Positions 9,926-23,452 are shown, counted from the first letter of the stretch. The stretch: 32,000 bases of DNA from Coprobacillaceae bacterium (GCA_963675515.1 OY776328.1:2160001-2192000); one strand, 5' to 3'. A program made the numbers and translations. The notes: generated by a model not told the origin, from the letters alone.

Positions 9926-9963
9926 GACAGTTCGTTTGCACCATCCTGTCGTAAAACAAAACT
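9926..9963 (+). promoter_or_regulatory. preQ1-I riboswitch aptamer
   Basis: P1 stem is GACAG (9926-9930) pairing with CUGUC (9946-9950). The loop begins UUCG and contains ACCAUC. The A-rich tail is GUAAAACAAAAC. Loop GUUU can pair with tail AAAC to form the P2 pseudoknot. It lies directly upstream of queD, and the layout matches the B. subtilis and Fusobacterium preQ1-I examples as I remember them. Confidence 0.7.
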
Positions 9964-9993
9964 CGGGCTTGTTTTTTCGTCATGGAAAAACTT

Positions 9994-10017
9994 GCGGCCC
10001 GGAATGGCTGCTTTTTT
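9994..10017 (+). terminator. Riboswitch expression-platform terminator
   Basis: GCGGCC (9994-9999), loop CGGAAT, GGCTGC (10006-10011, one G-U pair), TTTTTT (10012-10017), 18 nt before the queD ATG. CGGGC (9964-9968) can alternatively pair with GCCCG (9997-10001), which would act as a possible antiterminator. Confidence 0.55.
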
Positions 10018-10034
10018 CATGTAAAGGAGAATAT

Positions 10035-10451
10035 ATGTACTATCTAACAGTAGAAACAACACTTGATGCCGCCCATTTTTTAAGCGGCTACCAAGGCAAA
10101 TGTCAGAATATCCATGGCCACCAATGGAAAATCATCGTGACCATAAAATCGGAAGAATTGATCGAGGAAGGACCCTGTACCGACATGGTCATCGATTTCA
10201 AGGCGCTCAAGGCCATCGTCAATGAGGAAGTCGATTATTTCGACCACAGCCTGATTATCAAAAAAGGCAGCCTCGACGAAAACGCGCTTAAGAGCCTGTC
10301 AAACTTCCTGATCCGCGAGCTTGACTTCCAGCCGACCGCGGAACGGCTGGCTTACTACTTCTTTAAGAAGATCAAAAGCCACGGCCTCGATGTCGACCAG
10401 GTGGCGATTTACGAGACACCGGTCAACCAGGCCATCTACAGGGAGGCCTGA
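10035..10451 (+). CDS. queD: 6-carboxy-5,6,7,8-tetrahydropterin synthase
   Basis: Motifs AAHFL, CQNIHGHQW and ETP near the C-terminus. RBS AAAGGAG precedes ATG 10035. The ORF-track 5' extension (9936-10034) covers the riboswitch leader. Confidence 0.9.
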   Translation: MYYLTVETTLDAAHFLSGYQGKCQNIHGHQWKIIVTIKSEELIEEGPCTDMVIDFKALKAIVNEEVDYFDHSLIIKKGSLDENALKSLSNFLIRELDFQPTAERLAYYFFKKIKSHGLDVDQVAIYETPVNQAIYREA

Positions 10452-10453
10452 TT

Positions 10454-11134
10454 ATGGCGATCACCTATCCGGTAGTTGAAAAATTCATATCGATCAACGG
10501 CGAAGGGTTATTTCAGGGTTATCCGGCGGTGTTCATCCGTTTTGCCGGATGCAACCTTGCCTGCAGTTACTGCGACACCCTCTACGCCAACAAGTTGGAG
10601 TGCGCCACCGAGCAAATCACGGCAGAGCAATTGAAAGACTACGTGGCAAATTCGAAAGTGGACCATGTGACCCTGACCGGGGGCGAACCCCTGCTCCAGG
10701 ACAACCTCGAACACCTGTTCGACCAGTTCAAGGATACCGGATGCACGATTGAAATCGAGACAAACGGCTCGATGGCGATCGATGATCTGGCTGCTTACCG
10801 CCAAAAAAACAATGTTCCCATCATCTTCACGCTCGATTACAAGCTGCCAGGCAGCCTGATGGAACAGCACAACCGGACTGAAAACTACAGACATCTGACC
10901 AAGGCTGATGCCGTGAAATTCGTGATCGGCAGTTTCGAGGATTTCCTTAAAGCCTGTGAGATCGTGAACACGCATGATCTTCCAACGAAGACCAACGTGA
11001 TCTTCTCGCCGGTCTACGGCCAGGTGGAAACATCGAACCTGGTGGAGTGGCTGCTTGAAAGAGGAATGATGAAAATTAAAGTCCAGCTGCAGATCCACAA
11101 ATATATATGGAATCCCCAATCAAAAGGAGTATGA
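10454..11134 (+). CDS. queE: 7-carboxy-7-deazaguanine synthase (radical SAM)
   Basis: [16 protein letters not shown] carries the CxxxCxxC cluster, with LTGGEPLLQ also present. It is positioned between queD and folE. Confidence 0.9.
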
Positions 11135-11136
11135 CA

Positions 11137-11724
11137 ATGGCAATCGACCAGGAAAAAATAGAATACCACATCAAAGGCCTGCTTGAAGCGATCGGTGAAG
11201 ACCCCGAGCGCGAAGGTCTCAAGGAGACCCCGCAGCGGGTGGCCAAAATGTACAGCGAAGTCTTCGAGGGCATCAACTACACCAACGAACAGATCGCAGA
11301 CATGTTCAACAAGACGTTCAGTGATGACCTTGACCTGACAACAGCCCAGGACATGGTCATCGTCAAGGACATCTCGGCGTTCAGTTACTGCGAGCATCAT
11401 CTTGCGCTGATGTATGACATGCAGATCGCCGTTGGCTATATTCCTTGCGGCAAGGTCATCGGGCTATCCAAAATCGCCCGGATCGTCGACATGGCCTGCA
11501 AGAGGCTCCAGCTTCAAGAGCGCATCGGATCGGACATCGCTTCGATCATCACGATGGTCACCGGAAGCGAAGACGTGGCTGTGGCCATCAAGGGCAGCCA
11601 CAGCTGCATGACCGCCCGGGGCATCGGCAATGTCACCAGCACAACAATAACCAACACCTGGCGGGGCGTTTTCCAGGATGACTCCAACAGCCAGTTAAAA
11701 TTCTTGATGGAAATCCAGAGGTGA
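11137..11724 (+). CDS. folE: GTP cyclohydrolase I
   Basis: Motifs [21 protein letters not shown] and [11 protein letters not shown]. Start chosen at ATG 11137, 7 nt after AGGAG (11125-11129). Confidence 0.9.
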
Positions 11725-11729
11725 TCAAT

Positions 11730-12434
11730 ATGACAAAAGTAATGGTACTTTCCAGCGGCGGCATCGATTCGACAACGTGCATCGCCCTGGCAATCGACAA
11801 ATACGACAAAGACAACGTGGTCTCGCTTAGCATCTGGTATGGCCAGAAGCACGACCGCGAGATCGAGGCAGCTAAAAAAGTTGCGGCATACTATGGGATC
11901 GAACATCGTCAGCTAGATCTCACCTTGATCTTCAAAAACAGCGACTGTTCCCTGCTCAAGGGTTCATCACAGGATATCCCCGAGGAATCTTATGCCAGCC
12001 AGCTGGCCAAGGCTGATGGCAAACCGGTTTCGACCTACGTGCCTTTTCGCAACGGGCTGTTCCTTTCATCGGCCGCTTCACTCGCACTTATCGACGGGTG
12101 CTCGATCATCTACTATGGAGCCCACCAGGACGATGCCAGCGGCGACGCCTATCCCGACTGTTCCGACGCCTTCAACCAGGCCATGAATCAGGCGATCTGG
12201 ATTGGCAGTGGCAAACAGGTTGCCATCGAGGCGCCATTTGTGGCCAACACCAAAGAGGAAGTTGTCAAGCTGGGACTGGAGCTCAAGGCTCCATACCATC
12301 TGACTTACAGCTGCTACCAGGGCGGGGCCATCCCTTGTGGGAAATGTGGCACCTGCATCCAGCGAGCGGAGGCCTTCGCCGCAAACAACACCGCAGACCC
12401 TGCGCTTACAGGAGAATATAATGAATCAATCTAA
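11730..12434 (+). CDS. queC: 7-cyano-7-deazaguanine synthase
   Basis: [12 protein letters not shown] is the PP-loop, and the C-terminal Zn cluster is SCYQG...CGKCGTC. The ATG at 11730 follows RBS AGAGGTG. Confidence 0.9.
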
Positions 12435-12915
12435 CCGCACCGACGCCAACCTCTTTCTTCTTGGCAACCAGAACACATCTTATCCGACCAGCTATGACCC
12501 GGACGTGCTCGAGTCGTTCGACAACAAGCACCCTGGCAATGACTACTTCGTCAAGTTCAACTGTCCCGAGTTCACCAGCCTTTGCCCGATCACGAATCAG
12601 CCAGATTTCGCGACGATCTACATCTCTTATGTGCCAAACATCAAGATGGTGGAAAGCAAATCGCTCAAACTCTATCTATTCTCATTCCGCAACCATGGCG
12701 ACTTCCATGAAGACTGCATCAACATCATCATGAAAGACCTCATCAGCCTGCTCGACCCGAAATACATCGAGGTCTGGGGCAAGTTCACTCCAAGAGGGGG
12801 AATCTCGATCGACCCTTATGTCAACTATGGCAAACCAGGCACGCCTTGGCACCAGGTTGCTTTCAACCGGATGTCCAACCATGACATGTATCCCGAAAAA
12901 ATCGACAACAGATAA
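12421..12915 (+). CDS. queF: NADPH-dependent 7-cyano-7-deazaguanine reductase (type I)
   Basis: 164 aa. Motifs [13 protein letters not shown] (catalytic Cys) and [16 protein letters not shown] (QueF motif). ATG 12421 follows AGGAG and overlaps queC by 14 nt. Confidence 0.9.
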
Positions 12916-12948: not shown

Positions 12949-13331
12949 CAATTATCGATGAATTTTCGCGCGTATCGAAGCAGCACCGAGACCCGGACTT
13001 CCTCGTAGCCCTGGTGCGAATGGACCTGGATCACATCCTGGTTGACCATTTCGAACCGGTTGGCATGGATGATCGAATTGATATCCTCGCGGATATCCCG
13101 CTCCAGCCGGATAAAGCTGTTTTCATGCATCTTGCGCAGCACAATGCTAAGGCAAGCCAAAGCCAGCTCGAGATCGACCTGGCTGGAGATCAGGTCTTTT
13201 TTGAGATACTCCTGGTCGATATTCTCATAGGTCGGCAGCTTCATGATCTTGTTCAAGACTGTCTGGACCGAGATTATTTCATGTTCGAGCTGCTCCTGGT
13301 AGCAGCGTCGCTTGATGGTACGCTTGCTCAT
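12948..13331 (-). CDS. Hypothetical 127-aa soluble protein, translationally coupled to ftsX
   Basis: Its ATG shares one nucleotide with the ftsX stop (TAATG at 13329-13333). It has no TM segment or signal peptide and its composition looks helical. It ends at the operon terminator. I recognise no family. Confidence 0.6.
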   Translation of the reverse strand: MSKRTIKRRCYQEQLEHEIISVQTVLNKIMKLPTYENIDQEYLKKDLISSQVDLELALACLSIVLRKMHENSFIRLERDIREDINSIIHANRFEMVNQDVIQVHSHQGYEEVRVSVLLRYARKFIDN

Positions 13332-14242
13332 TAGAACTTCAAATAGCGACGGATCGAGATGAACGATCCGATCAGTCCGACCCCGGCTCCAAGGCCAACC
13401 AGGGCCTCAACGAGCTGGGCGATCACTGCGCTTGGAGGCACAAGTGAAAGCATCTGGGTCACGACCATTCCGTTGGTCACATTGTAGATGTAGTCATAGC
13501 CATAGAAAAGCATGATACAAGGCAGCAGCGCCCCGACCAGTCCGATAATCATTCCTTCAAGCATGAACGGAACCCGGATATACCAGTTGCTTGCCCCGAC
13601 CATCCTCATGATTGAAATTTCGGTCTTGCGGGTGTCGATTGTTATCTTGACCGTGTTGGCAATCATGAAAAGGGCGATAACTCCCAAGGCTACAACGAAG
13701 ATGGTTCCTCCGTTGCGCACGGTATTGAGCGTCTTGATCAGGTCGGTAGTCGAGTTGCCGCCGAAATCGACAGTGTTGACATTTTCGATAGCGGTGATTT
13801 CTTCAGCCGTAGCCTGGATCAAAGCCGGATTGGTTACCGTAACGGTATAGGCCGCTCCCAGCGGGTTGTCTTCACGGTAGCTTTCAAAAAGAGCCGCTCC
13901 AGCTTCCCCTTGGGATTCGATCAGCCGGTCAAGCTCGTCGCTTTTAGATGAGTATTCGACATTGGCGATATTGTCAAGCTCCTGGATCGCCACACCGACC
14001 TGCTCGGCCTGAGCGTCGTCGATGGTCCGGTCAAGTTTGACGTAGATGCTTATTTCCTCCTCGATCGAGGTGGAAATATCCTGGACATTGAATGCCACCA
14101 GTCCGACGATTCCGATCATCGCCAAGGTGATGGTCACCGCGAAGATCGATGAAAACGACATCACGTTGTTCCTGATTATGTTCTGGACCGCAGTTTTCAT
14201 GTGCCGCGGCAGATTTCTGATTGTACTTATTAATTCACGCAT
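13331..14242 (-). CDS. ftsX: Cell-division ABC transporter permease-like protein FtsX
   Basis: 303 aa. Topology is TM1, an extracellular loop of about 110 aa, then three C-terminal TM helices. It lies immediately downstream of ftsE with a TAATG overlap. Confidence 0.85.
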   Translation of the reverse strand: MRELISTIRNLPRHMKTAVQNIIRNNVMSFSSIFAVTITLAMIGIVGLVAFNVQDISTSIEEEISIYVKLDRTIDDAQAEQVGVAIQELDNIANVEYSSKSDELDRLIESQGEAGAALFESYREDNPLGAAYTVTVTNPALIQATAEEITAIENVNTVDFGGNSTTDLIKTLNTVRNGGTIFVVALGVIALFMIANTVKITIDTRKTEISIMRMVGASNWYIRVPFMLEGMIIGLVGALLPCIMLFYGYDYIYNVTNGMVVTQMLSLVPPSAVIAQLVEALVGLGAGVGLIGSFISIRRYLKF

Positions 14243-14922
14243 TATATTCCATAACCCCCTGTGGTTGTATCGCTGTCAATATATCCATTGTCGATGACGA
14301 TTGTCCTTTTCTTGTTCGATTGGACAATCTCGCGGTCGTGAGTGACAACCAGGACAGTCGTCCCTGTTTCGTTGATCTTCTCGAGCAACTGGATGATCTC
14401 GACCGAAGTGTCCGGATCAAGATTTCCCGTCGGTTCATCCGCGATAAGCAGTTTGGGATGGTTGACAATCGCCCTGGCGATGGCCACCCGCTGCTGCTGT
14501 CCGCCTGAAAGTTCATTCGGGAAGGCATTGATTTTCTCCGACAAGCCGACAAGGTCCAAAGTCTCGCGGACTTTCTTGCGGATTTCATTACGGGGTGTGT
14601 CGATCACTTCAAGGGCGTAAGCCACGTTTTCAAAGATTGTCTTGTTTGGCAACAGCCTGAAATCCTGGAAAACAATGCCGATATTGCGGCGGAAGTAAGG
14701 CACTTTGCGGTTTGGGATCTTCGATACGTCAAGACCGACCACTTCGACCAGGCCGCTGGACGCCTTGATTTCCCGGTACAAAAGCTTGATGAATGTCGAT
14801 TTTCCCGAACCGGTTGTCCCGATTACATATACGAACTCACCAGAGTCGATTGTGAGCGAAATATTATTTAAAGCCCGGATGCCCCGGTGATATGTTTTTG
14901 ATACATTTTCTAATCTGATCAT
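14242..14922 (-). CDS. ftsE: Cell-division ATP-binding protein FtsE
   Basis: Walker A GTTGSGKST, signature LSGGQQQRVAIARA, Walker B LLIADEPTGNLD. 226 aa. Confidence 0.9.
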   Translation of the reverse strand: MIRLENVSKTYHRGIRALNNISLTIDSGEFVYVIGTTGSGKSTFIKLLYREIKASSGLVEVVGLDVSKIPNRKVPYFRRNIGIVFQDFRLLPNKTIFENVAYALEVIDTPRNEIRKKVRETLDLVGLSEKINAFPNELSGGQQQRVAIARAIVNHPKLLIADEPTGNLDPDTSVEIIQLLEKINETGTTVLVVTHDREIVQSNKKRTIVIDNGYIDSDTTTGGYGI

Positions 14923-15064: not shown

Positions 15065-15331
15065 ATGGAAAGAAAATGCATCCGCTGCCAGTCTGTCATG
15101 CTAGAAAACTGCCATCTCAAGTTAAACCAGGGGCCATTGCTTCTAAGCCATGAGCTGGTCATCGATCAAAGCGACTACACCAAAACGGTCCATCAGCTAA
15201 AGTGCGCCTATTGCCCAAGCTGCGGCTATGTCGAGACCTACTTCGAACCGGATCAGGTAAAACAGATTGCCCCCCGCAAGGTATCGAACAGCTACAAAGA
15301 ACAGGTGATCGCCAAAAAAAAGCTGAGATAA
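15065..15331 (+). CDS. Hypothetical 88-aa Zn-ribbon protein
   Basis: CIRC...(about 40 aa)...CAYCPSCGY, with a Lys-rich tail. It has a strong RBS, its own promoter-like element and its own terminator. Confidence 0.55.
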   Translation: MERKCIRCQSVMLENCHLKLNQGPLLLSHELVIDQSDYTKTVHQLKCAYCPSCGYVETYFEPDQVKQIAPRKVSNSYKEQVIAKKKLR

Positions 15332-15345
15332 GTCCTCAGCTTTTT
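15314..15345. terminator. Bidirectional rho-independent terminator shared by convergent genes
   Basis: A8, stem AGCTGAG (15321-15327), 7-nt loop, CTCAGCT (15335-15341), T-run. The stop codons of both convergent ORFs (15329-15331 and 15336-15338) lie inside the hairpin. Confidence 0.75.
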
Positions 15346-15596
15346 CGTTGGTGTTCCATGATATTGTTGAATTCCTGTTGCCCTTGAAAGATCCCATAGC
15401 CAACCACCAGGCTGGCAACCAGGAACACTCCCGCCACGATTCCTAGAATTACGACAAGGCTAGAGTTATCGATAAAAGCAAGCAAGGCCAAGACGGCTAT
15501 AAACAAGCCGATCAGACAATCAAGGAGCCACTTTTGCAACCTTGCGATCATGACCCGATGGTAAGTGAGCTTCGCATATGCGCTTAAATGATCCAT
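15336..15596 (-). CDS. Hypothetical 86-aa two-TM membrane protein, last gene of the PTS operon
   Basis: It starts 3 nt after the IID stop codon. It has two hydrophobic helices (LIGLFIAVLALLAFI and VVILGIVAGVFLVASLVVGYGIF). The operon terminator follows it, and there is no obvious RBS. Confidence 0.5.
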   Translation of the reverse strand: MDHLSAYAKLTYHRVMIARLQKWLLDCLIGLFIAVLALLAFIDNSSLVVILGIVAGVFLVASLVVGYGIFQGQQEFNNIMEHQRKS

Positions 15597-15599
15597 ACT

Positions 15600-16433
15600 C
15601 TAGTATTGCAGTCCCGGATTGAAAAAGCCGATCAGCACCCCGACAAAAGCCACGACAACCAGGATTCCCATCACCTTGGTTGGCGAGATCTTGCGTTTTG
15701 ACATCAGCCACCAGCAGATCACTACAGTCACCGCTGTGAGCAGTTTGGGATAGACGGAATTCAATGAATTGTTCAGATCGACAATGACTTCACCGTTGGC
15801 ATCAAGCATCCTGAAGGCTGTCGACACATTGATCCATGAAGCTGCCACCGCACCGATGACCATGGCACCGACAATCTGGATCGACTCGCGGATGGCCTGG
15901 GCTTTTTCCCCGACCAGGATTTCCACCGCTTTTCCCCCAAGCTGGTAACCTTTGAAATAGATGAAGCGCATCCCCAGAAGGGCAAACAGGTTCCAGGTAA
16001 CGACATAGAACAATGGCCCGATGATCGAACCGCCACTGGCAAGACCTAGGGCGATCCCCAAAAGGATAGGAATGACCGTACCGACGATCAGGGAATCCCC
16101 GATTCCGGCCAGGGGCCCCATCAATCCGGCTCTTAGACCATTGATTGTCTCGTCATCAACCGGTTCACCGTTGGCTCTGGCCTGTTCAAGTCCGGCAGTG
16201 ACCCCGACCACCACAGCCCCGATCTGCGGTTCCGTGTTGAAAAAGGCGGTGTATGTCTTCATCGAGCGCGCCAGTTTGTCGGGCTCACCCGCATACAGTT
16301 CCTGGCAGATTGGAAGCATCGCGCTTAGATAACCGAATGTCTGCATGTGTTCTTGAGAGAAGCAGGTCAGATTGCCATAGAACCATAGCCAGAATGATTT
16401 GTTCAAAGTCTTCTTGCTTAATTGTTTTTCCAT
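15600..16433 (-). CDS. PTS mannose/fructose/sorbose-family EIID component
   Basis: 277 aa. N-terminus LNKSFWLWFYGNLTCFSQEHMQTFGY and the overall pattern are typical of ManZ-like IID proteins. Confidence 0.9.
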   Translation of the reverse strand: MEKQLSKKTLNKSFWLWFYGNLTCFSQEHMQTFGYLSAMLPICQELYAGEPDKLARSMKTYTAFFNTEPQIGAVVVGVTAGLEQARANGEPVDDETINGLRAGLMGPLAGIGDSLIVGTVIPILLGIALGLASGGSIIGPLFYVVTWNLFALLGMRFIYFKGYQLGGKAVEILVGEKAQAIRESIQIVGAMVIGAVAASWINVSTAFRMLDANGEVIVDLNNSLNSVYPKLLTAVTVVICWWLMSKRKISPTKVMGILVVVAFVGVLIGFFNPGLQY

Positions 16434-16434
16434 T

Positions 16435-17274
16435 CTAGATATCCTCCTCTTCGTCCAGGGTCGCTCCAGTAGCGGATCTGGTTGCCAGTTTGGCTGTCTT
16501 GATCTCGTATTTGATAAAAGCGAACATTGCCGCTATGACAGTGGCGCTCACCAGGTTCAATCCCATCGAAGCCGCCAAAGTGAAGCCAAAGAAAAACGGA
16601 ATGAAGTCGGTAGCTTTCAGGCAGATCTGTTTTAGCAGGATGGCTACCCCGACCGCAGGCAGGAGTGAACCGACCGTGAAGATCGTTTTCATCGCCAGAC
16701 CGTCCATTGGCAGATACATCTTGATGGCGTCGACCGCCGGCGCCCCAAGACGGCACATGATCAAAGCCGGAATGAATGAACAGATAATATGCGAAACCCA
16801 AGGATAAAGCATGTTCACCCGGTAGATCTGCTTGTAGTTCCCCTTGTCGATCGCGTTCCATCCGATCCCTTGCCAGATCAGGTTCATGGTCGCGGTCAGA
16901 TAGAACAGCACGGTTCCCACCGTCCCGACCAGAACCCCGAATCCGGTTGCCAGTGACACCCCGTCAGTGGCGGCAGGATCCAATCCGTAAGCCTTCAAGG
17001 CAACCATCGCCAATGGGATCCCGATATAAGACACGGCCCGGACATCGGCACTGACCGTTCCTCCAGGTGTGACCAGGGCGATATAGACCAGCTGCATCGC
17101 CGCTCCGACCATGATTCCGGTGCGAAGATCGCCAAGAATCGCTCCCACGACCATTCCGGCCACCAAAGGCCTTCCCAAAGTGTAATTCCCAAATGTAGTC
17201 CCGCCAAGACCAGGCATCGATGAAAGGCAGGCGAACAATCCCAGCAATGCTGCTTGTAACCAACTTATTTCCAT
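16435..17274 (-). CDS. PTS mannose/fructose/sorbose-family EIIC component
   Basis: 279 aa and polytopic, with an acidic C-terminal tail. It is positioned between IIB and IID. Confidence 0.85.
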   Translation of the reverse strand: MEISWLQAALLGLFACLSSMPGLGGTTFGNYTLGRPLVAGMVVGAILGDLRTGIMVGAAMQLVYIALVTPGGTVSADVRAVSYIGIPLAMVALKAYGLDPAATDGVSLATGFGVLVGTVGTVLFYLTATMNLIWQGIGWNAIDKGNYKQIYRVNMLYPWVSHIICSFIPALIMCRLGAPAVDAIKMYLPMDGLAMKTIFTVGSLLPAVGVAILLKQICLKATDFIPFFFGFTLAASMGLNLVSATVIAAMFAFIKYEIKTAKLATRSATGATLDEEEDI

Positions 17275-17289
17275 AATCTCTCTCCTTTT

Positions 17290-17781
17290 CTAGTAACCGA
17301 ATTTTCCTCTGAATTTGCGCCAGTTGCCGATTGCGGCTTCCTTGATCAGCGCGAATTCGATATTGTAGCCCGCGGCCATGATGCTTTCCAAAGCCGCAGC
17401 CTCCTGGGGTGTGACCGACTGGTTGTTGCCAAGCTTGATCGCCCCTTCGCGGTCGTTGCACGGCCCCACGATCACATCCTTGATTCCCGGATCGAATCCC
17501 TGTTCGACCAGGATCTTTTCCAGGTCGATGGGATTCTTGGTGATCAGAAAGTACCGTGAATCGCTGTCCAAAACTTTTTGAGCCTTCTGTTTGAATTCAT
17601 CCAGAGTCCATATGAAAGTTTTCTTGTCGCTGGCCGACTTGTACGCCGCCTTTAACACCGGATTGCTTGCCGCATTGTCATTGACCGCGATCAGCCCGTC
17701 ACATGGATACTCCAGTGACCAGCGGGTCACCGTCTGACCATGGATCATCCTATCGTCAATCCGAATAAATGAAATCGCCAT
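17290..17781 (-). CDS. PTS mannose-family EIIB component
   Basis: MAISFIRIDDRMIHGQ carries the phospho-His motif of Man-class IIB. 163 aa. Confidence 0.9.
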   Translation of the reverse strand: MAISFIRIDDRMIHGQTVTRWSLEYPCDGLIAVNDNAASNPVLKAAYKSASDKKTFIWTLDEFKQKAQKVLDSDSRYFLITKNPIDLEKILVEQGFDPGIKDVIVGPCNDREGAIKLGNNQSVTPQEAAALESIMAAGYNIEFALIKEAAIGNWRKFRGKFGY

Positions 17782-17795
17782 TTTCTCTCTCTCCT

Positions 17796-18218
17796 TTAAA
17801 TGTCTTCGTCTTCGCCGCTTTCCAGCACGAACTCCTTGATGGAACCGGTGGCTTCTTTGATAATTGCCGATACCAGCTGGTCTGTGGCCATTGTGTCCTT
17901 CATCAATACACAGCTTAACACCAGCGGCAGGTTCATTCCCCCGATGATCACTGCCTGACCAAGAAGCTTGGCTTCATCAAGGTAGCTTAAAGTCGTCGAT
18001 AGCGGCGAACCGCCGATGATATCCCCTAGTATTATCAACTCGTCATCTTTTGACACACTTTCAAGCAGAACTTTTAGATTCTCCTTGAACCCGTCGACTC
18101 CCTGTCCCTCAAGAAGCCCCAGGCAAAGCACTTCCTCGCGCTTGCCTGCAAGCATCTCCAGGCTGTCCTTGATTCCCGCAGCCATTTTGCCATGGCTGAC
18201 CATCACTACATATTTCAT
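17796..18218 (-). CDS. PTS mannose-family EIIA component
   Basis: MKYVVMVSHGKMAAG is the Man-class IIA His motif. ATG 18218 lies 7 nt after AGGAGG (18231-18226), and ATG 18221 is also possible. The ORF-track start at 18239 is TTG without an RBS. Confidence 0.85.
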   Translation of the reverse strand: MKYVVMVSHGKMAAGIKDSLEMLAGKREEVLCLGLLEGQGVDGFKENLKVLLESVSKDDELIILGDIIGGSPLSTTLSYLDEAKLLGQAVIIGGMNLPLVLSCVLMKDTMATDQLVSAIIKEATGSIKEFVLESGEDEDI

Positions 18219-18292
18219 CATCTTCCCTCCTGACAACAACCATTGTATAATAGCGCTTACTTTTTTCCCATTGGGATATGTAACATGTTTTG

Positions 18293-18313
18293 TTTACGTT
18301 TATCACCCGTAAA
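18293..18313 (-). promoter_or_regulatory. Inverted repeat TTTACG-N9-CGTAAA upstream of the PTS promoter (candidate response-regulator site)
   Basis: Perfect 6-bp arms at 18293-18298 and 18308-18313, centred about 50-55 nt upstream of the -10-like TATTAT (18252-18247). The hexamer at the -35 position is poor (CCCAAT). Confidence 0.3.
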
Positions 18314-18328
18314 AATGACAAAAGTCAC

Positions 18329-18352
18329 AAAAAAAACAGCCGGATAGGCTGT
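18329..18352 (-). terminator. Rho-independent terminator ending the sensory operon
   Basis: The minus strand reads ACAGCC, loop TATCC, GGCTGT, then T8 (plus-strand stem arms 18336-18341 and 18347-18352, preceded by an A-run at 18329-18336). It overlaps the stop codon of the binding-protein gene. Confidence 0.8.
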
Positions 18353-19638
18353 CATTTGGTTGCCTGGATCATCAGCTGTTCCATCTGTTTCTGAACATCG
18401 ATAAGATAAAGGTCGATATCCTGGTCGGTGGTAAGGGCACCGCTTAATTTCAAGAGCGCCTGGTCATAAAGATCATTGTAGCCTGAAATGTTTTGGGACG
18501 TCGCAGCTTCTTCCATGCCCCGGTCGATGACCGCCAAATCGAAATCCACGTCGAGCGACTGTCCGCTTAGCAGGTCCTTGGTCGCCTTTGAGTTGACCAC
18601 ACTCACCAGGGGCGATATGCCCTGCGAGGTGGCGAAGTAGTCCTGCTGGAAACAGGAATCATAGCTCAACATCCTGACAAACTTGAAGGCGGCCAGCTTG
18701 TCCTGGCACCTGGATGAGATCCCCATCAGCAGCGCGCTACAGCCCCCGGAATCGACCCCGTTAGCCGGGAGGTTGATGCAATCCCATTTGAAAGTCGAGT
18801 ATCGGGTGAGATTGTAGGGATAGAAGCGATAAGTCCGAAACTGGGAAAACGGCAGCTTCGCAAACGCCACCTTGCCTAGATCGAAGTCATCAAGACTCAG
18901 AGTGGTCCGGCCGTTGAGGGCGGTAAGCTTTTTGTAGTACTCGATTGCCGCTTTGGTCGAAGCATGGTCGATGGTAAAGCAACCCTGAGCGAAAAAATCG
19001 ATGCCATAGGCGTCAAACACATCACCCAGGTCATAGTTGCAACAGCCAAACTGGTCAACAGTCCCATCGCCGTTGGTATCCCTGGTAGCCTGCTGGCAGA
19101 CCTGGTAGAACTCCTCAAGATCAAGCCGGCCTTCGATTGTGATTCCTTCTTTTTCAAGCAATGTCTCGTTGACAAAAAGCAAATCGAGATCGCAGTCGAC
19201 TGGCAAACCATACCTGTTATTCTTGTATTCGCCGGCTTTCAAAGGGGCCTGGTAGTAGCTTTCCAGGTCGAAACTTTGATCCTGGGCGATCATGTCATCA
19301 AGGGGGCAAAGCGCATTGATTGATGCCAGTGAGGCGAAATCCTCCTCGAAAACAAGATAGATGTCAGGTTCCTTGCCCGCAACAATCAGTGAGTTGAGAT
19401 AATTGGAATAATCCTCCTTCAAGATGCCGCTGACATATTCGACTTCGATATCGTACTTGTCCTGATAGGTAGCTTTAAGCTTATCAATGACGTCATAGAT
19501 GTTGAAGTTGGCATCCGACCAGGGATTGCCCGCAAAAAGGCCGATAGTCAGCTTGTCGGGCCGCTGGAGATGGTTGTAGTAATAGCTCGACAGGGCAATG
19601 ATCACCACCAGCGGGATTATGATGATTTTACGTTTCAC
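18352..19638 (-). CDS. Extracellular solute-binding protein (family 1, MalE-like), membrane-anchored, with no cognate ABC permease nearby
   Basis: 428 aa. GTG start with N-terminus (M)KRKIIIIPLVVIIALSSYYY, a K/R-rich stretch plus TM helix with no lipobox Cys. The body resembles sugar-type family-1 SBPs. It overlaps the response-regulator gene by 11 nt. Confidence 0.75.
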   Translation of the reverse strand: MKRKIIIIPLVVIIALSSYYYNHLQRPDKLTIGLFAGNPWSDANFNIYDVIDKLKATYQDKYDIEVEYVSGILKEDYSNYLNSLIVAGKEPDIYLVFEEDFASLASINALCPLDDMIAQDQSFDLESYYQAPLKAGEYKNNRYGLPVDCDLDLLFVNETLLEKEGITIEGRLDLEEFYQVCQQATRDTNGDGTVDQFGCCNYDLGDVFDAYGIDFFAQGCFTIDHASTKAAIEYYKKLTALNGRTTLSLDDFDLGKVAFAKLPFSQFRTYRFYPYNLTRYSTFKWDCINLPANGVDSGGCSALLMGISSRCQDKLAAFKFVRMLSYDSCFQQDYFATSQGISPLVSVVNSKATKDLLSGQSLDVDFDLAVIDRGMEEAATSQNISGYNDLYDQALLKLSGALTTDQDIDLYLIDVQKQMEQLMIQATK

Positions 19639-20302
19639 TGGAAAAATCCTCGTTGATAAGATTCGTCTGGACCGCCCAGATCGCCACCTGGGTCCGATCC
19701 CGCAGCTGGAGCTTGTTCAAGATGATCGAGATGTAGTTGCGAACGGTCCCCGGGGAAAAATGGAGCTTGTCGGCGATCTCCTTGTTGGAAAGGCCAAAGC
19801 CGATCTGCTGGGCCACCAGCTTCTCCTTTACGCTAAGACTCTGGCAATCCTCGTCTGAAACACTGATCGTGTTGGGATTCCCCTCGCTTGAAAAGCGTTG
19901 GAGGATCTTCATCGCGATGTCCGGATTGATCATTGCGCCCCCTTCGTACACTTCCCTGATCGAATCATAGAGCTTGTCCATCGAGATCCCCTTAAGCAGG
20001 TAGCCGCATGCCCCGTTTTTCAAGGCGGAAAAGACATACTCGTCGTCGTCAAAGGTCGTCAGCACGATGATCTTCGTTCCGGGATAGAGCTCCTTGACTT
20101 CCCTGGTAGCCAGGACCCCATCCATGTTGGGCATCCGGATATCCATCAATATCACATCCGCCTGGTTGAGTTTCATATAGTCGAGCACTTCAAGACCGTC
20201 CCTGGCCGTAGCGACAATCTGGATGTCCTCCCGGGCACCCAGCACGATTTTAAGCGATTCCCGGATAAGCTCCTGGTCGTCTGCTATAATTACCTTTATC
20301 AT
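19628..20302 (-). CDS. NarL/LuxR-family response regulator
   Basis: Receiver domain motifs IIADDQ...ILMDIRMP...LTTFDDDEY. C-terminal GerE/LuxR HTH LSNKEIADKLHFSPGTVRNYISIILNKL. RBS GAGGGGG lies upstream. Confidence 0.9.
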   Translation of the reverse strand: MIKVIIADDQELIRESLKIVLGAREDIQIVATARDGLEVLDYMKLNQADVILMDIRMPNMDGVLATREVKELYPGTKIIVLTTFDDDEYVFSALKNGACGYLLKGISMDKLYDSIREVYEGGAMINPDIAMKILQRFSSEGNPNTISVSDEDCQSLSVKEKLVAQQIGFGLSNKEIADKLHFSPGTVRNYISIILNKLQLRDRTQVAIWAVQTNLINEDFSSET

Positions 20303-20306
20303 TGTT

Positions 20307-21602
20307 TTACCCCCTCTGCATTTTCAATGTCACAATAAGTTTGAATCCTTGCGAAACGTCGATGTCCACCGTGCCGTTCAGGGCCTGGATGCGCTCCTTC
20401 ATCTGCTTGATGCCATAACCTTCGACTAGCTCACCGCAGCCTTTCCCGTCGTCTTCGATGATTATCACGATGCTTTGTCCGATCAGACTAAGCGATATGG
20501 AAACCTGGCTGGCTTGGCCGTGGCGTTTGGCATTGGTAATACCTTCCTGGATGGTCCTGAAGATGGCATCTTCGCGCAGGTTGTCAAGGTCCAGATCGGG
20601 CAGGTTGTAGTCGAGGGCTATTGCGACCTGGCTGGCGGCCCCGAAATTTTCGCACACCTTGGTCAGCGCCTCTTTCAGGTTGCTTTGTAAAAGCGCATCG
20701 GGACGGAGCTTTTGCAGGGAATTGCGGACATCGCCGATGCCCTCCCGCACCACCTTTGACAATGTGTCCAGCTGCCTTTTGGTGGCATCGATGTCGACAT
20801 CGATCAAAGTGACACAGGCATCGATTCCCGCCGCAATCCCGGTAAGGGCATGGCCCAGCGTGTCATGAAGCTCCCGGGCGAGCCGCTTGCGTTCATTGTT
20901 TTCCCCGATCTTCTCGGTCAGGGTCGCATAGACCTTCAGCTTCTCGTTGACCGAATTGATCATGACCAGCTCACTGGCGATCCTCTCGTTTTCCCGGATC
21001 TGGTGAGCGATGAAGGCCAGGAGATAGATGATGAAAAGCAGGAAGTTGATCCCGTCGAAAACGCTCATAAGCAGATTGATCGAATTGACGCTCGCTGCGG
21101 GATTGAACTCGACATAGCTGGTGAAACTCGGGATTTTCACGAATGTCGAAATCACATTGTACCGGGAAAAAGTCGAGATAATGAACATGACCACAAGGAT
21201 GCTGGGAATCGAGTGGTTCTTGTTTATCTTGGAAATGAAATCGACGAAGATCACCAGGATCAATCCCGTGTAGCCAAAATAGACAAGGTAACCGATCAGA
21301 AAATAGATGACCAGCTCGCATACGATCGTGATAATCGCCTGGTTGAGATTCATCTTCTGGTTTTCAAAGTAGATGATGATGCTAAAAAGGGCAAGATACA
21401 GGATCGTTGTGCCAAAGTAGACCACCTCGGGCCGGTGGGGCAGGGATTCGATGTTTTTTAGAAATATCGTCGATAGCGAATTGTTCACCACATAGTTGGT
21501 CGTCGAAAGAATGATCCAGGCCATATAGGTTATGACGATGAAATTGACGATAAGCATCAGGTATTTGATGTTGCGCAGGTTGACGTATCTGATCAGCTTC
21601 AT
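20307..21602 (-). CDS. Sensor histidine kinase, HisKA_3 (NarL-partner) class, about 6 TM helices and no extracytoplasmic domain
   Basis: H-box RLARELHDTLGHALTG, N-box ITNAKRHG, G-boxes DDGKG and GYGIKQMKERI. The N-terminal 200 aa are almost entirely TM helices with loops of 25 aa or less. The likely start is ATG 21602, overlapping the upstream stop as TGATG; the ORF-track start at 21611 is GTG. Confidence 0.85.
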   Translation of the reverse strand: MKLIRYVNLRNIKYLMLIVNFIVITYMAWIILSTTNYVVNNSLSTIFLKNIESLPHRPEVVYFGTTILYLALFSIIIYFENQKMNLNQAIITIVCELVIYFLIGYLVYFGYTGLILVIFVDFISKINKNHSIPSILVVMFIISTFSRYNVISTFVKIPSFTSYVEFNPAASVNSINLLMSVFDGINFLLFIIYLLAFIAHQIRENERIASELVMINSVNEKLKVYATLTEKIGENNERKRLARELHDTLGHALTGIAAGIDACVTLIDVDIDATKRQLDTLSKVVREGIGDVRNSLQKLRPDALLQSNLKEALTKVCENFGAASQVAIALDYNLPDLDLDNLREDAIFRTIQEGITNAKRHGQASQVSISLSLIGQSIVIIIEDDGKGCGELVEGYGIKQMKERIQALNGTVDIDVSQGFKLIVTLKMQRG

Positions 21603-22546
21603 CACTGCCACCCGAGCATATTGGAATATGCCACATTTTCCTTGGTGATCAAAGTGGTGTCAAGGCTGATGGTCTTCTCCACGCTTTCATGGCCGATCAG
21701 CCTGTAGCCGTTGGTTATCGCCTGACCTCCCAGCTGTCGGGGCGACTGGCTGGCGGTCGCCATGATATTGGGATTGGAAACAAGCAACTTCTTGATTTCC
21801 GGGGACCCGTCGACCCCATAGACCTGGATATCCTTGCCAAGCAGCTCCACTGCCGCCAGGGCTCCCAGGGCACTCGTGTCATTGAGCGCCATGATCACAT
21901 CGACTTCAGGGTTGACTCCTAGATATTCGGCCACTTGATTGTAGGCCAGGTCGGTCTGGCCCAGACAATCGAGCTCTGCGACGATCCGGTAGTCTGGATC
22001 GCCTTCAATAACGTCCCTGAAGCCGTCAATCCGCGCTTTGGCCGCCATCACCTGATTGTGCTCGAGGATCAGGATATTGGCCTGGTCGCGCAAAGATTTC
22101 ATATATCTGGCGCAGTCCCCTCCGGCATCGTAGTTGTTCGAAATGACCAGGCAATCATAGAGGTCCGGATTGGAAATGGTCGAATCGACCAGGACGACCG
22201 GAATGCCCGCATCCTTGGCCTCCTGGAGGGCCGGTTCGATCTGTTTGACGTCTACCGGATTGACGATAAGCAGGTCGATGTACTGAGCAATCAGGTATCT
22301 TATCTCCTCTGACTGGCGCTGGCTGTCCTGGCAGCCATCAAGGGTGATTATCGTGTCGCCGTTGGCCTTTACAGCCTTGGTGATCTCATTGTTTATTACC
22401 TGGAAGAACGATTTGTCGAGCTCCATATAGGTCGCCCCGATCAAAAAGTGCTGCTGGTTCAGCCGGGATGAATCGGTATACGACAGGAAGATCAGACCGG
22501 AAAATGTGAGACTCACAACCACCATTATCTTGATCAATGACTTCAT
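21602..22546 (-). CDS. Type-I periplasmic binding protein (RbsB/LacI-fold sugar-binding), membrane-anchored, with no cognate ABC permease nearby
   Basis: 314 aa. The N-terminal anchor MKSLIKIMVVVSLTFSGLIFL has no lipobox Cys. The motif LLIVNPVDVKQIEPALQEAKDAGIPVVLVDS is typical of the Peripla_BP fold. Confidence 0.8.
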   Translation of the reverse strand: MKSLIKIMVVVSLTFSGLIFLSYTDSSRLNQQHFLIGATYMELDKSFFQVINNEITKAVKANGDTIITLDGCQDSQRQSEEIRYLIAQYIDLLIVNPVDVKQIEPALQEAKDAGIPVVLVDSTISNPDLYDCLVISNNYDAGGDCARYMKSLRDQANILILEHNQVMAAKARIDGFRDVIEGDPDYRIVAELDCLGQTDLAYNQVAEYLGVNPEVDVIMALNDTSALGALAAVELLGKDIQVYGVDGSPEIKKLLVSNPNIMATASQSPRQLGGQAITNGYRLIGHESVEKTISLDTTLITKENVAYSNMLGWQ

Positions 22547-22572
22547 TGGACATGCCCCCTTTCCTGTTTTCC

Positions 22573-22612
22573 ATTATATATGACATTTATAACTGCAACA
22601 ATTGATAATTGT
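22573..22612 (-). promoter_or_regulatory. Candidate promoter of the sensory operon with an overlapping palindrome
   Basis: The minus strand reads TTGTTG (22601-22596), 17 nt spacer, TATAAT (22578-22573). The palindrome ACAATT-gat-AATTGT (22598-22612) overlaps the -35. Confidence 0.45.
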
Positions 22613-22663
22613 CACTATTTTTTGGAATCGGAACCATTATAATTTAACTGAGGAGTTGATTCA

Positions 22664-23452
22664 ATGAATTACAAGATAGTTTTTTGCGATCTGGACGGGA
22701 CCTTGCTTGGAGATGACCATCAATTGTCCATAACAAACGCCAATGCCATCAAAAATCTTCCAGTGCCATTTGTCGCCGTGTCCGCCAGGATGCCTAAAGG
22801 GATAACCTGTTTTACCGATCAGCTGGAGATCGACTATCCAATCTGCGCCTACAACGGCGCCTATATTATCCATCAAGACCAAATCATCAACAATAAGACC
22901 ATACCGGCTGACATTGTCAAAGAAGTAACAGCCATGCTCAAACAGACGTCAAGCCATCTTTCAATCTACCAGGAAGACGAGTGGTACATCGAAAAACATG
23001 ATTGTCCAAGCCAAAACGAGTCAAGGATCACAAATATCTTTCCTACCGTCGTGGATTTTGATCGAATCGACCTGTCCAATGTCAACAAGCTTCTTGTAAT
23101 TTCCTCTTTGGATGATATCGATGATATCCTGGCTTCACTTTCCATCTACCAAGACCAGGTCGATATTGCCAGATCCAAGATAGACTATATCGAGATAACG
23201 CCAAAAGGCGCTTCCAAAAAGGAAGCGGTTGGCCTGATTTTGAAATATTACGGTTTGAAACCAGAACAAGCCATCGCCATTGGTGACAACTACAATGACG
23301 AAGGGATGATAGAAGCGGTTGGCAAAGGCATTCTGCTGGCCAACGCGCCTTGTGTTCTCAAATCACGATACGAAACAAGCGAATACACCAACGACCAGGA
23401 TGGCGTGAGCAGGATCCTGGAACAGCTGATAAGCAGAAAACGAGCCCGATAA
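22664..23452 (+). CDS. Cof-type HAD-IIB family hydrolase (second copy in the window)
   Basis: Motifs YKIVFCDLDGTL, SARMP and GDNYNDEGMIEAVG. RBS GAGGAG lies upstream. Confidence 0.85.
   Translation: MNYKIVFCDLDGTLLGDDHQLSITNANAIKNLPVPFVAVSARMPKGITCFTDQLEIDYPICAYNGAYIIHQDQIINNKTIPADIVKEVTAMLKQTSSHLSIYQEDEWYIEKHDCPSQNESRITNIFPTVVDFDRIDLSNVNKLLVISSLDDIDDILASLSIYQDQVDIARSKIDYIEITPKGASKKEAVGLILKYYGLKPEQAIAIGDNYNDEGMIEAVGKGILLANAPCVLKSRYETSEYTNDQDGVSRILEQLISRKRAR

Follow-up and report, generated by a model that had tools for sequence, protein, structure and literature searches.

A nine-gene locus of a Coprobacillaceae bacterium homologous to the LevQRST sensor and levDEFGX phosphotransferase genes of Streptococcus mutans

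The LevQRST system of Streptococcus mutans, a four-component sensor that accompanies the phosphotransferase system (PTS) genes levDEFGX, was reportedly described by Zeng, Wen and Burne in 2006. Here, we analyse a locus of nine consecutive minus-strand open reading frames (ORFs) located between positions 22546 and 15336 of a 32-kb stretch of DNA from a Coprobacillaceae bacterium (GCA_963675515.1 OY776328.1:2160001-2192000; hereafter the window), in which a sensor operon homologous to levTSRQ precedes a PTS operon homologous to levDEFGX. In S. mutans, the levTSRQ operon precedes levDEFG, and no ABC (ATP-binding cassette) transporter is encoded nearby. The two ABC-type binding proteins, LevQ and LevT, are each held in the membrane by a transmembrane segment, and LevS possesses up to five such segments with small extracellular exposure (PMC3043104). 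According to the genetics of this organism, LevQ and LevT act in signalling alone; LevR binds the levD promoter region in vitro, and similar operons have been noted in Streptococcus gordonii, Streptococcus sanguinis, two lactobacilli, Clostridium acetobutylicum and Dorea longicatena (PMC3043104). LevS (SMU.1965c) is assigned to histidine kinase group HPK7 and LevR (SMU.1964c) to the NarL family, and the mutans streptococci examined in that work have no AraC-type regulators at all (PMC3353171).

The nine proteins of the window locus pair one-to-one with LevT, LevS, LevR, LevQ, LevD, LevE, LevF, LevG and LevX, collinearly and over their full length (BLASTP, nine of nine). The genes encode, in order, an RbsB-like binding protein, a HisKA_3 kinase, a NarL-type regulator and a family-1 binding protein, followed by a terminator, the PTS proteins and an 86-aa product. 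Domains were assigned by Pfam and NCBIfam profile searches of the ORF translations in the window, and the Pfam architectures of the S. mutans Lev proteins are identical to those found here, including the HisKA_3 kinase and the REC+GerE regulator. The S. mutans lev locus used for this comparison lies on a 1.3-Mb contig (L002), which was retrieved from metagenome contigs with a published UA159 primer situated upstream of levT (PMC3043104). The contig was verified by exact matches to primers levT-2 and ssbA-1, by the ssb gene upstream, and by the agreement of 11 residues of LevT, LevS and LevQ with their published positions. In LevT, C12, C149 and D72 are at the published positions; L202 and I253 of LevS fit when numbered from the ATG; and C161, C188, C296, C336, E170, F292 and D202 of LevQ fit when the protein starts at Met11 of the ORF.

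We conclude that the locus is, with high probability, an orthologue-level homologue of S. mutans LevTSRQ together with its target levDEFGX, and that it works by a Lev-type mechanism. The conclusion is based on homology, gene order, the conservation of catalytic and functionally mapped residues, and the conservation and position of a palindrome in front of the PTS operon; the flow of the signal, the ligand and the activation step we infer from S. mutans genetics. Since nine Lev-like genes stand in the Lev order, the locus is a new example of a known and widespread system and not a new type of sensor. Systems of this type have been known since 2006, and homologous operons in Firmicutes were already reported by the authors of that system.

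A scan of one genome per species detected relatives of LevQ in 513 genomes, and the locus statistics given below refer to the best 80 of these 513. They comprise Erysipelotrichales, Anaerostipes and other Lachnospiraceae, Clostridium, several Streptococcus, Enterococcus pseudoavium and Negativicutes. Nearest to the window among the 80 are metagenome-assembled genomes (MAGs) of an Erysipelotrichaceae (68% identity) and a Coprobacillaceae bacterium (56%), and the whole nine-gene block is kept in both; an origin of the window in the Erysipelotrichales is accordingly most likely. The T-S-R-Q order is unchanged in all 80 loci, and a Man-family PTS adjoins the cassette in 60 of them, downstream in 50 and upstream in 10; it is lacking in 8 loci with full flanks, and a further 12 loci have incomplete flanks. 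Loci without a PTS have other neighbours: a GH32 (glycoside hydrolase family 32) fructanase gene in L032 and L054, a GH3 gene in L067, EIIA_2 in L052, and in L081 and L045 a complete set of ABC importer genes for a separate binding protein, an ATPase and a BPD_transp_2 permease. An earlier note on this DNA, made from the sequence alone, had proposed to test whether the sensor genes co-occur with Man-family PTS operons and never with ABC permeases; the latter rule does not hold at the level of the family, as the importer loci show. By this survey, some 500 species of Firmicutes from the gut and the mouth possess the cassette, in most cases together with a PTS of the fructose/mannose type.

The sensor genes are translationally coupled, with start and stop codons that overlap or nearly touch throughout. 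The junctions described in the earlier note were all found again: a TGATG at 21602 combines the stop codon of the upstream binding-protein gene with the ATG of the kinase gene (only if the kinase begins at that ATG), the kinase and regulator genes are 4 nt apart (20303–20306), and the genes of the regulator and the second binding protein overlap by 11 nt (19628–19638, GTGAAACGTAA). The same note had assigned to the four genes a promoter-like element of their own and a strong terminator, and it had placed a IIA-IIB-IIC-IID operon and an 86-aa membrane ORF directly after them; all of this is supported, the IIA to IID genes by their Pfam domains. The putative promoter, TTGAAT-17-TATAAT (22636–22664, minus strand), matches the consensus at 10 of 12 positions in a consensus scan. 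The intrinsic terminator (18327–18353, minus strand) is composed of a 7-bp stem, a 5-nt loop and a run of eight U residues (free energy −11.3 kcal/mol, z −3.74), with the stem at 18353–18335 and the U run beyond it. Together with an intergenic region of approximately 110 nt (18222–18334), it parts the sensor operon from the PTS operon.

The LevT-like protein (21602–22546, 314 aa; minus strand, as for all nine genes) is a type-I, RbsB-like sugar-binding protein (Peripla_BP_4, 1.9e-47) that is 36% identical to S. mutans LevT over its full length (BLASTP, E 2e-67) and has a single hydrophobic helix at residues 3–21. The LevQ-like protein (18352–19638, 428 aa) is 32.6% identical to S. mutans LevQ (BLASTP, E 1.6e-79). 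It has no Pfam match of its own, and the NCBIfam search returned a faint match to GanS alone (0.0077); it is labelled a family-1 solute-binding protein because its homologues carry SBP_bac_1 and SBP_bac_8 domains, S. mutans LevQ itself matching SBP_bac_1 at 2.9e-28. That the two proteins differ in fold, as had been claimed, is supported directly by Pfam for the type-I protein and through homologues for the family-1 protein.

Each binding protein starts with basic residues and a single hydrophobic helix, and cysteine is missing from the first 50 residues of both, which means that no lipobox is present in either; the K/R-rich, lipobox-free N-termini described earlier are thus confirmed for both. 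From these sequence features, the two proteins are predicted to be tethered by the N-terminal transmembrane helix and not lipid-anchored. Across the surveyed loci, a lipobox is likewise absent from 66 of 71 sensor T proteins and 70 of 80 sensor Q proteins. Residues E170 and F292 of LevQ, at which mutations are published to alter signalling in S. mutans, are invariant in a ten-member family alignment that includes the window protein.

The LevS-like protein is a polytopic histidine kinase (HisKA_3, 2.7e-17, plus HATPase_c) encoded at 20307–21602 if it begins at an ATG (431 aa) or at 20307–21611 if it begins at a GTG (434 aa). Residues 1–434 align with residues 1–441 of S. mutans LevS, the membrane half included (38.6% identity, E 2.5e-104), and the H-box ELHDTLGH is conserved. 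About six hydrophobic segments are found in residues 14–206, and the longest loops between them comprise 23 and 26 aa, in agreement with the earlier description of some six helices and no extracytoplasmic sensor domain. Helices were counted with a 15-residue hydropathy window; a 19-residue window gave too few helices in the kinase and a false segment in the ATPase domain. The published numbering of LevS is compatible solely with the ATG start in the TGATG. The alternative, seemingly conserved N-terminus 'MAVM', read from the GTG, was rejected as an artefact, because the end of the upstream binding-protein gene (GWQ and stop) is itself conserved and overlaps this stretch; it appears in the window (21600–21611) and in the S. 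mutans contig (L002, 8116–8127). The LevR-like regulator (19628–20302, 224 aa) has the NarL/GerE architecture (Response_reg 1e-27, GerE 1.5e-14), is 59% identical to S. mutans LevR (E 1.7e-93) and retains the phospho-acceptor Asp54.

The PTS operon begins with a LevD-like EIIA-Man protein (17796–18221, approximately 141 aa; EIIA-man, 7.5e-23), which is 39% identical to LevD (E 3.3e-36). Its probable start, as read from the sequence, is the ATG at 18221, preceded by the ribosome-binding site AGGAGGG; the ORF itself extends to 18239 (147 aa). It is followed by a LevE-like EIIB of the sorbose family (17290–17781, 163 aa; PTSIIB_sorb, 1e-33; 67% identity with LevE, E 7.1e-86), a LevF-like EIIC (16435–17274, 279 aa; EII-Sor, 4.6e-58; 70% identity with LevF, E 2.6e-135) and a LevG-like EIID (15600–16433, 277 aa; EIID-AGA, 8.6e-86; 66% identity with LevG, E 1.9e-141). 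The last gene encodes a LevX-like small hydrophobic membrane protein of 86 aa (15336–15596), which matches no Pfam or NCBIfam family and is 29% identical to S. mutans LevX (E 8e-5 in the nine-protein comparison). A LevX-like hydrophobic ORF of 60–130 aa follows IID in 48 of 58 loci, and it represents a conserved PTS-linked protein without an assigned function. The operon ends at a hairpin with flanking A- and T-runs (15317–15345; 11-bp stem, AAAAAGCTGAG...CTCAGCTTTTT), which lies between convergent ORFs and is likely a bidirectional terminator. Pfam detected no domain of a sigma-54 activator or a PRD-containing regulator in any ORF of the window, all of which were scanned, in accordance with the earlier statement that no sigma54/LevR-, ManR- or PRD-type regulator stands beside the PTS.

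A palindrome, TGACTTTTGTCA (18316–18327), lies upstream of the EIIA gene and matches TGACW4GTCA exactly; it is a candidate operator of the LevR-like regulator. The family consensus is TGACA-N2-TGTCA. Of 62 loci, 45 have the pattern TGAC-N4-GTCA in front of IIA, and 60 have it when one mismatch is allowed, S. mutans and the window included; in these 60 loci, it lies approximately 100–140 nt from the IIA start. Its density is 2.4 per kb upstream of IIA, against about 0.02 per kb elsewhere (more than 100-fold). In the S. mutans levD promoter, the exact motif occurs twice, with a spacing of 21 bp. Where the PTS is missing, the motif is found in the interval that separates the Q gene from the GH32, ABC or EIIA_2 gene. 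Because it precedes these non-PTS targets too, the motif travels with the sensor cassette, as expected of the operator of its regulator. The sequence pattern makes TGACA-N2-TGTCA a candidate LevR-family operator, to which the regulator would bind.

In two Clostridium genomes (L032, 9777–12488; L054, 9655–13386), the cassette and the palindrome are followed directly by a gene for a large GH32 fructan hydrolase, an arrangement that parallels the fruA target of S. mutans LevR. In a Clostridiales MAG (L081, 9503–15085) and in Sporanaerobium hydrogeniformans (L045, 9475–15116), the palindrome precedes ABC importer genes, with a gene row after the cassette encoding a binding protein of the RbsB-like type with a lipoprotein signal, an ATPase with a double ABC_tran domain, a BPD_transp_2 permease, a class-II FBP (fructose-bisphosphate) aldolase and a PfkB kinase. 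From its gene neighbourhood, the cassette appears to have been rewired to an ABC importer in these two genomes.

Around the window palindrome, a degenerate and weak putative second site, TGATAAACGTAA (18294–18305), lies 22 bp downstream; a TGATA...GTAA element stands at the corresponding place in one of the closest relatives (L004), and similar elements are found in the other (L005). Candidate −10 elements of the PTS promoter, TATTAT and TACAAT, are present at 18242–18252 (minus strand), and no good −35 element was seen with them. The block GTAAGCGCTATTATA in this region is conserved in L004, and the palindrome sits approximately 70–75 bp upstream of the weak −10 element.

A further copy of the palindrome with one mismatch, TGATAATTGTCA (22603–22614), is located in the 117-bp region between the divergent genes for the LevT-like protein and a HAD phosphatase. 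It occupies a matching position relative to the T start (−67/−68) in L004 and L005, and in 14 of 71 loci, most of them from Erysipelotrichales, a copy with at most one mismatch precedes T; none was found upstream of S. mutans levT. By chance, 0.87 one-mismatch matches are expected per window, and the copy is suggestive only, as a sequence pattern, of lineage-specific autoregulation or of control of the HAD gene. We put forward tentatively, and with appreciable doubt, a wider proposal: the palindrome would be the operator of the LevR family; T-S-R-Q would constitute a portable cassette, connected in different lineages to a Man-family PTS, a GH32 fructanase or a CUT2-type ABC importer; and, in this Erysipelotrichales lineage, a second operator in the divergent promoter would add autoregulation, co-regulation of the Cof-type phosphatase, or both. 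The conserved palindrome offers a handle for regulon prediction in fructose- and fructan-using commensals.

A Lev-type mechanism at this locus would proceed in four steps. The tethered LevT-like and LevQ-like proteins would detect an extracellular hexose, by homology most likely fructose and/or mannose. The signal would then pass, via contacts between membrane helices, to the polytopic HisKA_3 kinase, which has no extracellular domain of its own. The kinase would phosphorylate Asp54 of the regulator, and the phosphorylated regulator would bind the palindrome TGACTTTTGTCA and activate the PTS operon (IIA-IIB-IIC-IID and the LevX-like protein).

Several points weigh against a straightforward Lev assignment. 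The ligand-binding proteins are just 33–36% identical to S. mutans LevT and LevQ, and for this reason the sensed sugar may differ from that of S. mutans. A GH32 fructanase, corresponding to the other target of S. mutans LevR (fruA), was not seen in the 32-kb window. The window palindrome differs from the consensus at one position, with TGACT for TGACA. Finally, a published definition of the LevR operator was not found in the accessible literature, which did not cover the founding 2006 paper, so that the assignment of the palindrome as an operator is our inference.

The first of these points bears on the alternative that survives best, namely that the Lev-type machinery is tuned to another hexose or an oligosaccharide, or that it governs a wider regulon (for example, a glycoside hydrolase or the HAD phosphatase). 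Besides the divergence of the binding proteins, this alternative draws on the near-palindrome in the divergent T/HAD promoter and on the loci elsewhere in which the cassette adjoins GH32, GH3, EIIA_2 or ABC importer genes. It is opposed by the 66–70% identity of the PTS IIB, IIC and IID proteins with LevE, LevF and LevG and by the conservation of the specificity-related residues of LevQ, and we judge it to be rather unlikely.

Far less probable is that the two binding proteins are transport receptors of an ABC importer encoded elsewhere and that the two-component pair has no connection with them or with the PTS. Both proteins do belong to ABC substrate-binding families, and the view taken here covers the 32-kb window of the genome. 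The coupled start and stop codons and the invariant T-S-R-Q order in 80 loci argue against such a role, as does the purely signalling function of LevQ and LevT in S. mutans (PMC3043104). Most sensor T and Q proteins lack a lipobox, whereas the extra binding proteins that are truly linked to importers (L081, L045 and L035) carry classic lipoprotein signals. The earlier note had stated that no ABC permease or ATPase gene is present anywhere in the window. This is literally incorrect, given FtsX (13331–14242) and FtsE (14242–14922; ABC_tran, 8.5e-36); because FtsEX is a cell-division pair and not a sugar importer, the substance of the statement stands, and no sugar ABC importer was found among the genes of the 32-kb window.

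It is hardly credible that the locus is an independently assembled NarL-class variant resembling LevQRST in architecture only, as the earlier note had proposed, since LevS is itself an HPK7/HisKA_3 kinase and LevR a NarL/GerE regulator, the four sensor and five PTS-operon proteins are homologous to and collinear with those of S. mutans, and members of the family occur in about 513 species genomes. Direct alignment with LevQ, LevR, LevS and LevT, which had been named beforehand as the comparison that would decide the matter, returned the same NarL and HisKA_3 families with full-length homology, and the one-to-one collinear matches refute an undescribed variant. The claim of novelty fails because it depended on the premise that LevS and LevR are YesM/YesN-like proteins with AraC-type output, which is wrong: LevS is an HPK7 and LevR a NarL protein (PMC3353171), with HisKA_3 and REC/GerE domains, respectively, by Pfam. 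The analogy to LevQRST was sound as a functional reading of a binding-protein-dependent sensor beside a PTS, and it fell short in taking as analogy what is homology. The note seems to have merged the Lev system with the XylFII-LytS-YesN/CuaDSR class, which is truly of the YesN/AraC type. The correction gained is that the four-component sensors of the Lev type belong to the HisKA_3/NarL systems and have to be kept apart from the three-component YesN/AraC class.

The gene divergent from the sensor operon encodes a Cof-type HAD hydrolase, a probable sugar phosphatase (22664–23452, plus strand; Hydrolase_3, 2.2e-52). In 41 of the 80 loci, the lev block has a HAD homologue as its immediate neighbour, either upstream of T or following levX. 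The gene could thus be a recurring accessory of the system, with a possible role in countering sugar-phosphate stress. A queuosine-precursor cluster is found at 9936–12915 (plus strand), comprising PTPS/QueD, the radical-SAM protein QueE, GTP cyclohydrolase I, QueC and QueF. The remaining genes of the window are housekeeping genes (FtsEX, PrfB, SecA, iPGM, and LexA-like and DinB-like genes), and these surroundings are consistent with a chromosomal location, not a mobile element.

In Bacillus subtilis, LevR is a sigma-54-dependent, PRD-containing activator of levDEFG-sacC. The window locus shares with that system a levDEFG-type PTS of the Man family under dedicated regulation. The B. subtilis regulator is nevertheless unrelated to S. 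mutans LevR despite its name, and a sigma-54/PRD gene is not present in the window.

The Escherichia coli UhpABC system combines a HisKA_3 kinase and a NarL-type regulator with an MFS-like (major facilitator superfamily) partner, UhpC, and its target is an MFS antiporter. As proposed for the window locus, a transporter gene is induced by a polytopic HisKA_3/NarL pair that perceives its extracellular cue, a sugar derivative, with the help of an accessory protein in the membrane. Among the NCBIfam models, UhpB matches the C-terminal half of the window kinase best (1.3e-31, far below the cut-off of that model), and only the kinase core (residues 220–430) aligns with it; the membrane half is therefore not shared. 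The partners also differ, being Peripla_BP_4 and SBP_bac_1 proteins in the window and the MFS-type UhpC in E. coli, as do the targets, a PTS and an antiporter; there is no MFS gene in the window sensor operon.

In XylFII-LytS-YesN of Clostridium beijerinckii and CuaDSR of Ruminiclostridium cellulolyticum, a dedicated, non-transporting sugar-binding protein likewise signals to a histidine kinase that controls uptake genes. These systems have one binding protein (a lipoprotein in the case of CuaD), a kinase with an extracellular docking domain, a YesN/AraC regulator and an ABC target (PMC10384115). In contrast, the window locus has a pair of binding proteins and combines a NarL/GerE regulator with a HisKA_3 kinase that lacks an extracellular domain (its longest extramembrane loops, of 23 and 26 aa, leave no docking domain), and its presumed target is a PTS. 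Pfam found no AraC helix-turn-helix match in the window regulator, the output domain of which is GerE.

The S. mutans Lev system differs from the window locus in its host lineage, the closest window relatives being Erysipelotrichaceae and Coprobacillaceae MAGs; in its two exact palindromes, where the window has one and a degenerate second site; and in the region upstream of T, which holds ssb in S. mutans and a divergent HAD phosphatase gene with a possible extra operator in the window. The two share all nine genes and their order, the Pfam architectures and full-length homology of each component (29–70% identity). Both have the T-S coupling through TGATG, lipobox-free anchored binding proteins, a polytopic kinase without an extracellular domain, and LevQ residues E170 and F292; in both, a terminator and a promoter of its own set the PTS operon apart from the sensor operon, and the palindrome lies at the PTS promoter. 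The locus lacks what defines the XylFII/CuaDSR, UhpABC and sigma-54/PRD systems, and it possesses every sequence-testable defining feature of the Lev system.

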